Source: Alphaproteobacteria bacterium
GTDB taxonomy: Bacteria > Pseudomonadota > Alphaproteobacteria > UBA828
Length of the DNA stretch: 64,000 nt
Direction: 5' to 3'
NCBI GenBank assembly: GCA_965221125.1
Contig: CBDCRW010000003.1
Coordinates: 384,001-448,000 of the forward strand
The notes under the pieces: generated by a model
What the model was told of the DNA's origin: nothing
Database searches by the model: none
Seen by the model: only the letters and a program-made list of their open reading frames with translations
Position numbers and translations under genes: made by a program
Part shown: one piece after another, positions 6,334-10,303 of the stretch
Layout: each line of letters begins with the position of its first letter
Numbering within the stretch: position 1 is the first letter of the stretch

Positions 6334-6596
6334 GTTACGTCTTCGGGCGAGAGCCGTTCGAACTCGTCCTCAATTAATTCCAGTACCCTGCGGTTCTCCT
6401 CCCGAATATCGGACAGCGCTCCGAAACCGGCCATCCACGGCGGTTCCTCGTCGGCGGCGCTCCCACCCTCTGCGGAGCGCCGAAGTTTCTCCTCAAGCGC
6501 TTCGGTAAAGAACCGTCTCAACGTCATGCCGCGGGCGGCGGCCAGAGCCTTGCTCTGCCGAAACACGGTGTCGGGAAGTTCCACAGTCGTCTTCAT
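6330..6596 (-). CDS. vapB: Antitoxin VapB (RHH-type)
   Basis: MKTTVELPD...KALAAARG RHH-like N-terminus, acidic tail, directly upstream of the PIN toxin. Start set to the ATG at 6596. Confidence 0.85.
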   Translation of the reverse strand: MKTTVELPDTVFRQSKALAAARGMTLRRFFTEALEEKLRRSAEGGSAADEEPPWMAGFGALSDIREENRRVLELIEDEFERLSPEDVT

Positions 6597-6810
6597 GTGG
6601 CCATATTCCCATAAATACGGTAGCGCGTCAAGTCGCGATATCATGCCGCCAATATGACGGCCGCCCCGTTCGTCCACCGTTGGCACGGAATTCTATGCGA
6701 AGCCCTGTCATCCCGACTCCCCGGACCATGGTGCGGTGTTGGGTAGCGTACGACTAGGGTACGCTGGAGCACGATAATTCTTTATATCTCAGCAAATTGC
6801 CGTATTCCAG

Positions 6811-7080
6811 TTGGAGGCGCTTCGGGGTGAGAGGACGCTTCGAGAGATTGGCTCGCAGCATCAGGTTCATCCGAACCAGGTGGGCGCTTGGAAGAGCCAG
6901 GGGGTCGCGGGCTTGGTGGAGTTGCTCTCGAAGGGCGCGGAGTGTCGTGCGCGTGGCCATGAGCGCGAGATTCGGGATCTTCACGCCAAGATCGGGGACT
7001 TGTTTGATCGTAGAGCGGGATTTTCTCTCGCGGGTCCCGTCGCTGAGCGGGGCCAAAAGGCGAGTCCCGGGCAAGCAACG
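6811..7080 (+). pseudogene. IS3-family transposase OrfA remnant
   Basis: LEALRGERTLREIGSQHQVHPNQVGAWK...IRDLHAKIG, then VERDFL in another frame. No N-terminus and no OrfB. Confidence 0.8.
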
Positions 7081-7281
7081 AAATTCGATGACGAGGACAT
7101 GGAAAGCCAGTCGTGGTCTGGGGTTTGATTCGATCCGGTTACGGTACGATGACAGATGGCTCTCTTGATCCTGCGAATGGAGCGAAGAAGCAAGGAATTT
7201 CGTAGGGTTGCGCGTGCCGCCGCCGCATCGGGTCGCGATTCTGACGAAATAAGGGCATGTCGTGACTTCCGGGACGAGCAT

Positions 7282-7400
7282 CTAGCTGAGACGGGTGAAC
7301 TCGGCGTCGGTTAGGAACCGATTCCGCTTGCGCCTGAGGTTCGACGGGATGGACTGGCAGGTGTCATCGCAGCCATCGGGCACCACCATGTCGCAGCCCC
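7282..7400 (-). pseudogene. Tyrosine integrase internal fragment
   Basis: RRKRNRFLTDAEFTRL resembles the RFLxxxE start of the integrase catalytic domain; very short and degraded. Confidence 0.5.
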
Positions 7401-7510
7401 TAGCGAGCTTGTCCATGTTGCTCCGGGTCAGCAGCCGCCAAGCCCGTTCCATAGGCCTCCGCTGCGCCTGATTGTGCATTTGACCATGCTTACCCGATGC
7501 TTATCCGAAG

Positions 7511-7542
7511 AAAAAGGCTTAGGCGAAATGCCCTAAGCCCTT
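7511..7542 (-). terminator. Rho-independent terminator downstream of the tRNA 3' fragment
   Basis: Minus strand reads aagggcttagggcatttcgcctaagccttttt: GGCTTAGG/CCTAAGCC stem followed by a T run. Confidence 0.65.
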
Positions 7543-7550
7543 GAAAACAA

Positions 7551-7595
7551 TGGTATGCCCGCCCGGACTCGAACCAGGCACCCTCTAATTAGAGG
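7551..7595 (-). pseudogene. tRNA 3'-half fragment (att-site scar)
   Basis: Minus strand cctctaattagagggtg-CCTGG-TTCGAGT-CCGGG-cgggcat-ACCA has an intact T arm and CCA. No D arm or 5' acceptor strand upstream. Isotype not callable. Confidence 0.75.
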
Positions 7596-7870
7596 ACTCG
7601 ATATTTTCGTTTTGAATCAAGGTATTTTCCACATTCGAGCCACTTTCCCCCCCTGAGTATCACTGACTTATCGTCGAAATGTAAAACAGTTTTCGTGGCT
7701 GATAGAGGGGCAAGAGGGGTCAGAACGACATCCGGCAGACAAGCTCATCGGTGGCGCGTTCGCGATTGTGGTTCGGCGCGCAAGTTGGGCGTCGATCGGC
7801 GTGGTAAGGCTTTGAACTCCGTTAATTCCGAGGGGTCAAACGAAGACGCCGAACATCTATGGACGCCCCC

Positions 7871-8126
7871 GTTGATGCAAGCAGTTCTTTGAACGCCTTG
7901 GAGCATGCGGTCAGGTGCTTACATCTATCCGGCCTGTTGATGCGGCGCGTAACTCTGGCGCCGCTGGCCCGCATGGAGATACGCGGATCGGGTCCATATC
8001 AACAGTGCGAGCTCGAAGGCTCTTTGTTCGGAAGCTGGTTTGCCCGATCCCGTCTCGTTGACCGTTTTGCCCTTGCCCGTCCTCCGTCCTGCCCGCATCC
8101 CCGACGACGTTCCGCGCTTCGCCTTC
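7871..8126 (-). ncRNA. Putative bridge RNA / seekRNA in the 3' non-coding region of the IS1111 element
   Basis: Two stem-closed loops (stems 7985-7992/8043-8050 and 7904-7910/7969-7975) carry segments matching the target flank and the donor junction. Exact transcript ends unknown. Confidence 0.8.
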
Positions 8127-9149
8127 TCAGGCGGCGACGGGAAGCCGGTAGGTCTCCTTCCTCGTCTCCAGCGCCCACACGATACGCGCCATGCGGTTGG
8201 CCAGGGCCACCGCGACCAGCATCCTCGGCTTGCGCGCCAGCATCCTGGCCAGCCAGGGGTCAGCCGTCTCGCCGCGTCGAATCGCGTGCCTGACAACCGT
8301 CATGGCGCCCGTGATCAGGAGGCGCCTGAGGTCGCGCTGGCCCATCCTCGATATCTTGCCCAGCCTCGGCTTGCCGCCCGTCGTGTGCTGGCGCGGCACG
8401 AGGCCGAGCCAGGCGGAGAAATCGCGCCCGCGCCGGAAGCTCTCCATCGGCGGTGCAAAGGCCTGGAGCGCCATCGCACAGATCGGACCGATCCCGGGGA
8501 TCGTCATGAGCCGCATCGCCTCTTCGTCCTGGCGCGCGCTCGCCTGAAGCGCCTTCCCAAGGCTGTCGATCTTCGCACTGAGCACGGCGATCTGCTCGAG
8601 GAGAAGGCCGGCCAACTCCCGAACCTGCTCCGGCAAGTCGCAACCCGGGGCTTCCAGCGCCACAGCCAGCCGACCGACATGAGCCGGTCCCTTGGGCGCG
8701 ATCACGCCGAACTCCGCCAGGTGGCCCCTCAGCGCGTTGATCGTCTGCGTCCGCTGACGCACCAGAAGATCGCGCGTGCGGAACAACATCGCCCGGGCCT
8801 GCTGATCCTGCGTCTTCACCGCCACCAAGCGCATGCTCGGCCGCTGCGCGGCTTCGCAGATCGCCTCCGCGTCCGCCGCGTCGTTCTTCTGCCGCTTCAC
8901 ATACGGCTTGACGTAGATCGGCGGGATCAACCTCACGTCGTGGCCAAGCTCATGGAACGCCCGGCCCCAGTGGTGTGCACTCGCGCAAGCCTCCATCGCC
9001 ACTTCACAACGCGGCCGAGAGGCCAGAAAGCTCTCAAGCTTCTCCCGGCTCAGCTTCTTGCGGAATGCAACCGACCCGTCTGCCCGAACACCGTGAAGCT
9101 GAAAGCTGCGCTTCGCCAGATCGATCCCGATGATGCTAACCTCTTCCAT
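8127..9149 (-). CDS. IS110-family DEDD recombinase/transposase
   Basis: GIDLAK, MEAC, KNDAADAEAI (DEDD), IPGIGP, WLGLVP, TGGK; strong AGGAGG RBS before the ATG at 9149. Confidence 0.95.
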   Translation of the reverse strand: MEEVSIIGIDLAKRSFQLHGVRADGSVAFRKKLSREKLESFLASRPRCEVAMEACASAHHWGRAFHELGHDVRLIPPIYVKPYVKRQKNDAADAEAICEAAQRPSMRLVAVKTQDQQARAMLFRTRDLLVRQRTQTINALRGHLAEFGVIAPKGPAHVGRLAVALEAPGCDLPEQVRELAGLLLEQIAVLSAKIDSLGKALQASARQDEEAMRLMTIPGIGPICAMALQAFAPPMESFRRGRDFSAWLGLVPRQHTTGGKPRLGKISRMGQRDLRRLLITGAMTVVRHAIRRGETADPWLARMLARKPRMLVAVALANRMARIVWALETRKETYRLPVAA

Positions 9150-9268
9150 GGATGCCTCCTCCTTCAGGGGGTTGAAACACAACACCACCTTGGCACATTG
9201 CGATGCCGTCAGGAGGGGGCGTCCATTCCATCAACAATTAGGGGGTCGGGAAACGCCGTGGCGGCCGC

Positions 9269-10303
9269 TCAGCGCCGGCCGGCGCCGAGCAGCTTCTCCG
9301 CCTCCACCTGGAAGTCGTCGAAGTAGTCGAGCGCCTCGTGCCCGCGCAGCGCTTCGCGATGCTTGAAGCAGTTTACGGTGTGCCCCTCGGCCACCGTGTC
9401 TTCCTTGGGCATCTCGCTCCGGCACTTGTCGTCGGCGAAGGGGCAGCGGCCGGCAAGGTAGCAGCCGGTCGGCAGGTCGATCGGGCTCGGGATCTCGCCG
9501 GCGAGGTCGACCGCGCTGTCGCGCTTGAGGTTCGGGTTGGGCAGGAGGACGGAGGAGAGCAGACCCACGCTGTAGGGATGGCGCGGGTGGCTGAAGAGTT
9601 CCTTCGCCGTCCCCAGCTCCACGATCATGCCGAGGTACATCACCGCGACCCGGTGGCTGAGGTAGCGCACGGTGCTGAGGTCGTGGCTGATGAAGAGGTA
9701 GGCGGTCTCCAACTCCTGCTGCAGGCGGATCAGGAGGTCGATGATCTCCGCCCGCGCCGTGGGATCGAGCGCCGACGTGGGCTCGTCGAGGACGATCAGC
9801 TCGGGGTCGGTGACGATGGCGCGCGCGATGCCGACGCGCTGCTGCTGGCCGGCGCTCAGCTCAGCCGGGAACTGCTCCAGCGTCGAATCGCGCAGGCCCA
9901 CGCGGCGCGCGACCTCGCGCACGCGCTTGCGCTGGTCGGGGCGGGAGATGCCCATGGAGCGCAGCGGCTCGGCGATGGTGTTGCCGATCCGCACCTGCGG
10001 GTCGAGGGACTCGGCGGGCTCCTGAAAGACGAGCTGCAGCTTGCCGCGCAGCTCGCGCGAGCGGATGTTGCGCCGCTTGTCGATGGGTCTGCCGTGGAAG
10101 CCGATGGAGCCGTCGGTCGACTTGATGAGGCCGAGCACGCAGCGGCCGACGGTGGTCTTGCCCGAGCCCGATTCCCCCACCAGCGAGAGCGTCTCTCCCC
10201 TGGCGACCGAGAAGCTCACCCCGTTCACCGCCTGCACCACCGAGCGCGAGCCCGCGATGGGGAAGTGCTTGACCAGCCCGTCGACGGTCAGCACGGCGCT
10301 CAT
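9269..10303 (-). CDS. Oligopeptide/dipeptide-type ABC ATP-binding protein (OppF/DppF-like)
   Basis: GESGSGKT, LSAGQQQRV, LDEPTSALD, HPYS, C-terminal Cys motif. Confidence 0.92.
   Translation of the reverse strand: MSAVLTVDGLVKHFPIAGSRSVVQAVNGVSFSVARGETLSLVGESGSGKTTVGRCVLGLIKSTDGSIGFHGRPIDKRRNIRSRELRGKLQLVFQEPAESLDPQVRIGNTIAEPLRSMGISRPDQRKRVREVARRVGLRDSTLEQFPAELSAGQQQRVGIARAIVTDPELIVLDEPTSALDPTARAEIIDLLIRLQQELETAYLFISHDLSTVRYLSHRVAVMYLGMIVELGTAKELFSHPRHPYSVGLLSSVLLPNPNLKRDSAVDLAGEIPSPIDLPTGCYLAGRCPFADDKCRSEMPKEDTVAEGHTVNCFKHREALRGHEALDYFDDFQVEAEKLLGAGRR

Follow-up and report, generated by a model that had tools for sequence, protein, structure and literature searches.

An IS1111-group insertion sequence of an alphaproteobacterium with a predicted guide RNA region downstream of its transposase gene

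A guide RNA, termed seekRNA, has been proved for four members of the IS1111 group of insertion sequences, ISEc11, ISPa11, ISKpn4 and ISPst6 (Siddiquee et al. 2024, PMC11187229), and bridge RNAs have been predicted at the right end of 93.0% of the catalogued IS1111 elements (Durrant et al., PMC11208160). In the IS1111 seekRNAs, the segment matching the top strand lies 5' of the segment matching the bottom strand, the reverse of the order found in IS110 types (PMC11187229). Here we describe a further element of this kind at positions 7856-9233 of a 64,000-nucleotide stretch (contig CBDCRW010000003.1, positions 384,001 to 448,000, of assembly GCA_965221125.1, lineage UBA828), which we refer to as the window. 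An earlier note on this stretch had proposed an intact IS1111 element whose bridge RNA reads both its donor junction and its target; it had also remarked that the mechanism class is already published, which is so. With a probability of roughly 80%, we interpret 7856-9233 as an intact and recently mobile IS1111-group insertion sequence of the IS110 family, with an RNA region downstream of its gene. The anatomy of the element, its ends, its empty sites, and the covariation of its guides with the flanks and with the right end were observed directly, and they modify the earlier proposal in several places.

As in the IS1111 members with seekRNAs (PMC11187229), the non-coding region follows the transposase gene, subterminal repeats (11-13 bp in those members) are combined with a 7-bp left and a 3-bp right extension, the transposase (330-350 amino acids (aa) in those members) carries a GL-P----S/T-G motif, and nothing is duplicated beyond the shared bases. 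The target sequence is different, and the likeness is one of layout and motifs. The window element also has a segment matching its right end, an extra that goes undiscussed in the sections of PMC11187229 drawn on.

IS621 and ISCro4 (PMC11208160, PMC11208158; PDB 8wt6, 9t56) share with the window element a DEDD RuvC-like domain together with a Tnp domain whose nucleophile is a hydroxyl, a bispecific RNA (predicted here) with the target module before the donor module, and a 2-nt crossover past which the guides continue in a handshake-like manner. The sequence similarity is distant, the transposases of ISCro4 (E 1.8e-11) and IS621 (E 1.8e-9) being the only matches among solved structures. Unlike these two, the window element has long subterminal repeats, Thr in place of Ser, and TG, with TG or CG among its relatives, rather than CT as the dinucleotide; its RNA region lies at the opposite element end, its guides for the top and bottom strands come in the opposite order, and both donor-type segments lie 3' of a hairpin and not on the two sides of an internal loop. 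A third comparison is with ISPpu9 and ISPpu10, IS110-family elements of Pseudomonas putida that insert at a dinucleotide in repetitive extragenic palindromes (REPs) and form circles, the junction of which may create a promoter (PMC12288879). These traits, in part predicted for the window element, make up the likeness. Judging by the sequences around its copies, the window element seems to target the edge of a REP-like repeat. In the Pseudomonas elements, the bridge RNA stands ahead of the tnp mRNA in a long Ptnp transcript, whereas the RNA region of the window element follows the gene.

Transposase, ends and empty sites

The element is composed of the following parts, with motifs given in element orientation.

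9234..9238, minus strand: left target half ATTGT (from the sequence and the empty site of genome G015)
9227-9233, minus strand: 7-bp left extension TGATGGA, preceding the left repeat
9215..9226, minus strand: left subterminal inverted repeat ATGGACGCCCCC (anchor kept in 73/83 rows of the comparison with relatives)
8127..9149, minus strand: transposase gene, 340 aa and stop, with D10, E53, D90, D93, and T257 in GLVPRQHTTG (Pfam, NCBIfam, structure-chain alignment)
7859..7870, minus strand: right subterminal inverted repeat GGGGGCGUCCAU (complement of the left 12-bp repeat)
7856-7858, minus strand: 3-bp right extension AGA, after the right repeat
7856..9233, minus strand: the insertion sequence, 1378 bp with one left-end TG copy counted (copy 2, G015 empty site, contig of run X6)
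7854..7855, minus strand: crossover dinucleotide TG (CA on the plus strand) at the right junction, target-derived (empty sites of G015 and X6)
7848..7853, minus strand: right target half TTCGGC (common to both copies; guide 8027-8031 is complementary)

The transposase contains both domains expected of the family: the RuvC-like N-terminal domain (PF01548, DEDD_Tnp_IS110; E 6.2e-18) and the C-terminal domain with the GL-P----S/T-G motif (PF02371, Transposase_20; E 2.3e-22). It scores 315.8 bits against a cut-off of 140 with the NCBIfam equivalog NF033542, 'IS110 family RNA-guided transposase'. In the alignment with IS621, D10, E53, D90 and D93 fall on its catalytic residues and T257 on its nucleophilic Ser. 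Non-coding flanks of 84 nt before the start and 271 nt after the stop surround the gene. The nearest transposase in the plasmid collection is 69% identical in aa sequence, with 4926 of the best 5000 records below 60%, and the nearest in genomes is 83% identical (a scan of one genome per species, which returned at least 250 relatives). These domains, the subterminal repeats and the ends given by empty sites bear out the proposal of an intact IS1111-group element.

The genome holds a second copy (G000:C4:166405-167793), 100% identical across window 7848-9236; the stretch identical in both copies contains GCCGAACA at one side and runs out in CAACA at the other. Because AACA stands at both junctions, and does so in both copies, the earlier note excised the element there. 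The ends are instead set by two natural sites that lack the insertion. A genome of the same genus (G015:C129) has the uninterrupted sequence ...GACGCCGAACAACAATCCG..., in which the left-flank match extends to 7855, the right-flank match starts from 9232, and the overlap is CA only. Among the sequencing runs, which were compared as Logan contigs, one contig of the metagenome run X6 joins 7853 to 9232, so that 1378 bases are skipped and 2 letters are ambiguous. Since the two empty sites share CA, the target reads ATTGT-TG-TTCGGC in element orientation, or CCGAA-CA-ACAAT on the plus strand, and the earlier placement of the crossover at CA on that strand stands. It is only with the ends set by the empty sites that the 12-bp repeats and their 7-bp and 3-bp extensions hold. 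Insertion is specific in site and orientation: both copies read ..TGT-TG on the left and TG-TTCGGC on the right, with 2 nt shared and no longer duplication. Relatives follow the same pattern: of 60 distinct junction pairs, 53 have one and the same dinucleotide (CG or TG) on both sides, at this fixed register.

We regard the element as recently mobile because two 100% identical copies occupy different sites and because the window site is empty in G015 and in the X6 contig. An orthologous empty site for copy 2 was not found in relatives, where its flanks lie tens of kb apart or on separate contigs. The same genome does contain an unoccupied paralogous site (C7, ~189136-189206, GGTGT-TG-TTCGGC...), 81.5% identical to the copy-2 flank over 65 nt. 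The identical insertion was also recovered elsewhere, in a contig of run X5 (window 7500-8032; another study, sponge metagenome) that crosses the right junction with 0 differences. The runs containing parts of the stretch (X5-X8, X10, X11) are mostly labelled sponge metagenome.

The earlier proposal in its exact form has to be weighed against these sites. It sets the ends at AACA, takes CCGAACAAT as the target (optimum CCGAACAGT) and CATCAACATCTAT as the circle junction, and closes the donor loop by a stem of 7904-7910 with 7969-7975. With AACA ends, both donor segments match 8/8, AACA is present at all junctions, and the stem (CAUGCGG/CCGCAUG, 7975-7969/7910-7904) is a perfect 7-bp pairing in the window copy. 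However, the uninterrupted sites both contain CCGAACAACAAT, which is 3 nt more than the proposed empty target CCGAACAATT, and the 1378 skipped bases come with a 2-nt overlap. AACA ends also break the 7/3 extension rule, and relatives share no more than their dinucleotide in its fixed register. In 32 relatives, the proposed stem is paired in only 67.3% of cells and does not covary, and its level of pairing is equalled by 115 of 500 shuffles. We therefore predict from the empty-site ends a circle junction of ..CCATAGA-TG-ATGGAATGG.., unlike that of the earlier note, which is not expected to form with these ends, and we consider the proposal in its exact form very unlikely. The case exposes a pitfall: a chance identity between flank and element end displaced the inferred ends by 3 nt, which led to a false circle junction.

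Predicted target guides and the flanks of relatives

The motifs listed in the earlier note were all found in place when the sequence was reread (CCGAACAA at 8031-8024, ACUGUU at 8006-8001, CAUCAACA at 7942-7935). Two of them fall into the predicted target guides.

8024..8031, minus strand: right-target guide CCGAACAA, which complements the top strand of the target at T + TG + TTCGG (covaries with right flanks)
7998..8006, minus strand: left-target guide ACUGU + UG + AU (covaries with left flanks)

The segment complementary to the top strand comes first in the RNA, as in the IS1111 seekRNAs (PMC11187229). The second, ACUGU-UG-AU, is identical to the left flank, the dinucleotide and the first 2 nt of the element, with 1 mismatch in the window copy. 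The window copy thus sits at a one-mismatch site, as had been claimed, with ATTGT fitting ACUGU at 4/5 positions; copy 2, with TCTGT, likewise fits at 4/5. The optimum predicted from the guides is ACTGT-TG-TTCGG in element orientation, or CCGAA-CA-ACAGT on the plus strand, and it replaces CCGAACAGT as the preferred site.

How much such matches mean was gauged with 2000 dinucleotide-preserving shuffles of the 256-nt non-coding region. A target-complementary 8-mer was reached in 187 of them and a donor-identical 7-mer in 460; all four kinds of match were reached jointly in 12. The matches of a single copy are weak by this measure, and the case therefore rests on relatives. Of those returned by the genome scan, 80 loci (72-83% aa identity) were kept, most of them in metagenome-assembled Alphaproteobacteria and Longimicrobiales. 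Of 83 rows, 73 showed the conserved end anchors, and the other ten were left out. Parsing of the first loop succeeded in 65 loci and gave 29 distinct loop sequences, and the flank tests were run on 53 distinct junctions, using the reverse complement of the loop's first 13 nt for right flanks and the loop's last 16 nt for left flanks.

In these tests, right flanks shared a mean longest run of 6.30 nt with their own 5' segment (n=53) versus 3.29 nt with those of other families (n=812), and left flanks shared 6.47 nt with their own 3' segment (n=53) versus 3.45 nt (n=806). The covariation of loops with targets in homologues, which the earlier note had named as a check, is thus present, and its claim that two segments of the 5' module match the two target strands is upheld. 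Individual loci illustrate the agreement: a guide complement of GGACTGCTAG faces a flank of CG-GACTGCTAG in L069, CCGTCAAGTG faces CG-TCAAGTCC in L054, and GTGTACCACGA faces TG-TACCACGG in L026. A truncated paralogue in the same genome, L003 (G000:C2:60016-61101; 81% DNA identity), has lost its 5' part, with the left end and the first part of the gene, and retains a complete RNA region with different guides (target TGACCCC). There, CCGAACAA is replaced by CGGGGUCA, and the flank has likewise changed to TGACCCC. As a separate observation, the left flanks of the multi-copy relative L004-L023 (OZ253470.1) fit the guide (GTAAC-CG), and the right flanks fail to fit in part of its distinct insertions, a pattern of half-site insertions.

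Taken with the relatives, though not from the window copy alone, assignment to the bridge RNA/seekRNA-guided class is supported: the two predicted guide segments match opposite target strands and overlap at the crossover point, the arrangement by which bridge RNAs and seekRNAs are recognised. One could instead suppose that the non-coding region serves simply as a 3' untranslated stretch or a terminator, its matches being coincidental and the site being chosen by the protein alone. The weak single-copy shuffle tests and the lack of an Rfam match are in keeping with such a view, against which stand the guide-flank covariation across 29 loop variants, the compensatory changes in stems described below and the published experiments on family members. 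We give this explanation next to no credence.

Predicted fold of the RNA region and its putative donor segments

The predicted fold was derived from an alignment of 32 distinct sequences with RNAalifold and explicit pair counts, with a wider alignment for the outer stems. In the order of the RNA, its parts are the following.

7877..8096, minus strand: structured non-coding RNA region, predicted bridge RNA/seekRNA (RNAalifold consensus, 32 sequences)
8096-8091/7882-7877, minus strand: predicted outer stem GCGGGC/GCUUGC, G-U-rich (RNAalifold consensus, wider alignment)
7971..8076, minus strand: predicted stem GCAAGG (8076-8071)/CCAUGC (7976-7971), enclosing the target module (wider alignment)
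7985..8050, minus strand: predicted target-binding module (closing stem, CCA/UGG, distal hairpin)
8050-8043/7992-7985, minus strand: closing stem of the target module, GGAUCGGG/CCCGAUCC, 8 bp
8038-8036/7996-7994, minus strand: CCA/UGG, invariant in 32 sequences
8022-8009, minus strand: distal hairpin GAGC-CUUCGA-GCUC (compensatory change at 2 pairs)
7931..7969, minus strand: second module, invariant stem GGCC (7969-7966)/GGCC (7934-7931) around the hairpin 7964-7942
7964-7942, minus strand: hairpin GCGGCGC/GCGCCGC of the second module
7935..7942, minus strand: CAUCAACA, in which CAUCA complements the left end at TG + ATG
7922..7928, minus strand: predicted left-donor guide AUAGAUG, equal to the right end's last 5 nt + TG (67/68 loci)

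The consensus comprises 24 pairs, 6 of which show double changes, with 98.7% of cells paired, and none of 500 shuffles matched the observed pairing percentage or covariation score. Compensatory change is found at 3 pairs of the target-module closing stem and at one pair of the GCGGC/GCCGC hairpin in the second module (G-C 22, A-U 5, G-U 4). In the GCAAGG/CCAUGC stem, 29 sequences have U-A at the covarying pair, and 3, the window element among them, have C-G. CCAUGC, which overlaps the closing stem that the earlier note gave to its 3' loop, covaries instead with an upstream partner. The order it gave, with the target module ahead of the 3' module, is confirmed. The minimum free energy fold of the non-coding region has z = -2.0, and 7 of 200 shuffles fold equally well. 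A covariance model built from the alignment (R1) matched the genome at the 3 element copies only, with no orphan copies; ISPpu9, by comparison, has a separate sRNA gene, ssr9, downstream of tnp and three further ssr9 copies elsewhere in its genome (PMC12288879).

The 3' part of the RNA contains two segments that had been read as donor guides. One, AUAGAUGU at 7928-7921 of the minus-strand RNA, includes AUAGAUG, and the claim that it matches the right end is supported: among the 68 loci with a parsed second module, the first 5 nt of this segment equal the 5 nt of the right end in 67, across 6 haplotypes. AUAGAUG and the right-end terminus (7922-7928, 7854-7860) lie ~65 nt apart as direct rather than inverted repeats. 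Their agreement is therefore not explained by folding of the RNA, but would be by base pairing between the RNA and the bottom strand of that end. The other, CAUCAACA, had been taken for the donor left half. The TG + ATG of the left end to which its CAUCA is complementary hardly varies among relatives, and its ACA part is complementary to the flanking TGT at 3/3 positions only in the window element and in one other family, L040. The match is therefore to the left junction as it stands after insertion (3 nt of flank, CA and 3 nt of element). By analogy with IS621 (PMC11208158), CAUCAACA could be a handshake-type extension, which the relatives do not back; as a general feature, this reading was rejected on account of its confinement to the two families. 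A link between the variable bases of CAUCAACA and the right-end haplotype was also looked for and was indistinguishable from shared descent. We consider the right-end guide supported by the comparison of loci, and a donor role of CAUCAACA at the left end putative and unproven.

These segments bear on a simpler scheme in which the seekRNA does everything: the first module would guide both insertion and excision, the latter via the target-derived flanks, the protein would read the 12-bp repeats, and the second module would be a scaffold or a precursor. ISEc11 donors needed target sequence at their flanks (PMC11187229), CAUCAACA has no covarying partner in relatives, and the second module is mostly invariant and thus uninformative on pairing. 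A mini-element was moved with greater efficiency by the short, 82-nt seekRNA of ISEc11 than by its long form (PMC11187229); since the short form alone sufficed, the second module may not be essential, and the scheme keeps some weight. It is countered by the right end, where AUAGAUG and the terminus co-vary at three positions in a way that is hard to explain without base pairing. Donor guides of IS1111 members were moreover predicted by inspection in Durrant et al. (PMC11208160). On this evidence we judge the seekRNA-only scheme improbable.

Several observations weigh against our preferred reading of an element with a target- and donor-reading RNA. The window copy taken alone matches its sites only weakly beyond chance, and at each of the two natural sites the left guide is mismatched at one position. 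The predicted 12-mer optimum has 0 exact and 2 one-mismatch occurrences in the genome (121 with up to two mismatches). The earlier expectation that the flanks of other copies would fit the loops holds where relatives' flanks track their guides and is only partly borne out in the L004 family, where in 5 of 11 distinct insertions the right flank shares no run longer than 4 nt and shows no match. The left-end donor segment shows no covariation with flanks, and in relatives of the CG type it usually mismatches the first base of the dinucleotide. The efficiency of the short ISEc11 seekRNA belongs here as well. As to the RNA itself, Rfam gave no match at gathering score in 7871-8126, and no RNA of the element was seen in the one RNA run, X20 (share 0.12), which contributed only short pieces 90-95% alike that come from relatives and are uninformative as to transcription.

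Other searches around the RNA can be reported briefly. Sub-threshold Rfam matches reach into 7871-8126 at 8081-8137 (14.2 bits, E 8.7) and 8119-8186 (14.9 bits, E 7.3), and the Rfam scan of 7500-9600 gave nothing usable, its best match (E 0.71) lying outside the element. A sigma-70-like promoter was not found in 7700-9400. In predicted circle junctions, a TTGC-type hexamer precedes a junction-spanning NAYGAT by 17 nt in 26 of 29 distinct cases, and the window element reads TTGCAT-N17-GATGAT, or 7/12 to consensus. A junction promoter is possible but weak; we do not claim it, given the weak consensus fit and the fact that TTGC is also part of the outer RNA stem.

Predicted mechanism, surroundings and significance

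The DEDD transposase, with Thr-Gly at the nucleophile position, would be expected to act with RNA from the downstream non-coding region. The first module would form an internal loop, the 5' side of which, CCGAACAA, would pair with the target top strand (TG + TTCGG), while the 3' side, ACUGU-UG-AU, would pair with the bottom strand (ACTGT + TG) and continue into the first bases of the element. Both sides would jointly specify the 12-nt site ACTGT-TG-TTCGG in element orientation. AUAGAUG of the second module would pair with the bottom strand of the right end + TG, and exchange at TG would set the element between ATTGT and TG-TTCGGC with no other duplication. The existence of the RNA, its binding by the transposase and strand exchange via a circular intermediate are what published relatives would lead one to expect.

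The remaining 7 of the 60 junction pairs (L030, L041, L050, L057, L061, L067, L081) are mixed, with the donor-type CG always at the left junction and another dinucleotide at the right. In four of the guide variants examined (L030, L041, L050, L061), the guides themselves disagree: CG is specified by the left-target and right-end guides but CA or TG by the right-target guide, and it is the latter that stands at the right junction. L057, L067 and L081 are ambiguous. The window copy, with TG on both sides, stands outside these cases. A tentative and rather doubtful interpretation of the sequences is that in this IS1111 clade the crossover dinucleotide may not need to be shared by donor and target. 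If so, both retained strands would in effect be joined 5' of the dinucleotide, or resolution would be strand-biased; this would suggest that the '3'-side target guide' encodes the product junction, not the substrate, and would differ from the obligatory shared CT core of IS621.

Several further features lie around the insertion. Window 7507-7615 (minus strand) resembles the 3' half of a tRNA: it has a stem-loop of the anticodon type, a T-arm reading GGUUCGAGUCC and a terminal ACCA, beyond which come a hairpin and a run of U. Its Rfam matches are weak (E 0.71 and 8.6), and ARAGORN reported no tRNA in 6500-10000; by its sequence, it may be an attachment-site repeat left behind by an integrated element. 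An open reading frame (ORF) at 6811-7128 (plus strand), whose translation contains …LREIGSQHQVHPNQVGAWKSQ…, presumably resembles the first ORF of IS3-family transposases, and its neighbourhood may be a patch of mobile-element remnants. At 7830-7839, ~15 nt past the right junction, the flank TTGACCCCTC (element orientation) matches the target half of the L003/L006 guide family, so that sites for two related elements lie within one short intergenic stretch. A near-target, ATTGT-GG-TTCGG, lies at 7765-7776 (plus strand), on the opposite strand ~80 bp from the insertion, with 2 mismatches, one of them in the dinucleotide; it sits within a palindromic GCCGATCG-type repeat. Repeats related to the copy-2 right flank occur at C7:189142-189206 (81.5%, 65 nt) and C6:119917-119965 (85.7%, 49 nt) and contain the palindrome CGCGCCGATCGGCGCG.

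The element is probably a so far unnamed member of its group, from bacteria seen in runs labelled sponge metagenome. To what is described for IS1111 elements it adds exactly defined ends, backed by two natural empty sites. The 29 natural guide variants with their tracking flanks amount to a natural reprogramming series for this RNA scaffold, and the covariation of a right-end guide without a left-end counterpart bears on whether IS1111 elements read their donor by RNA.

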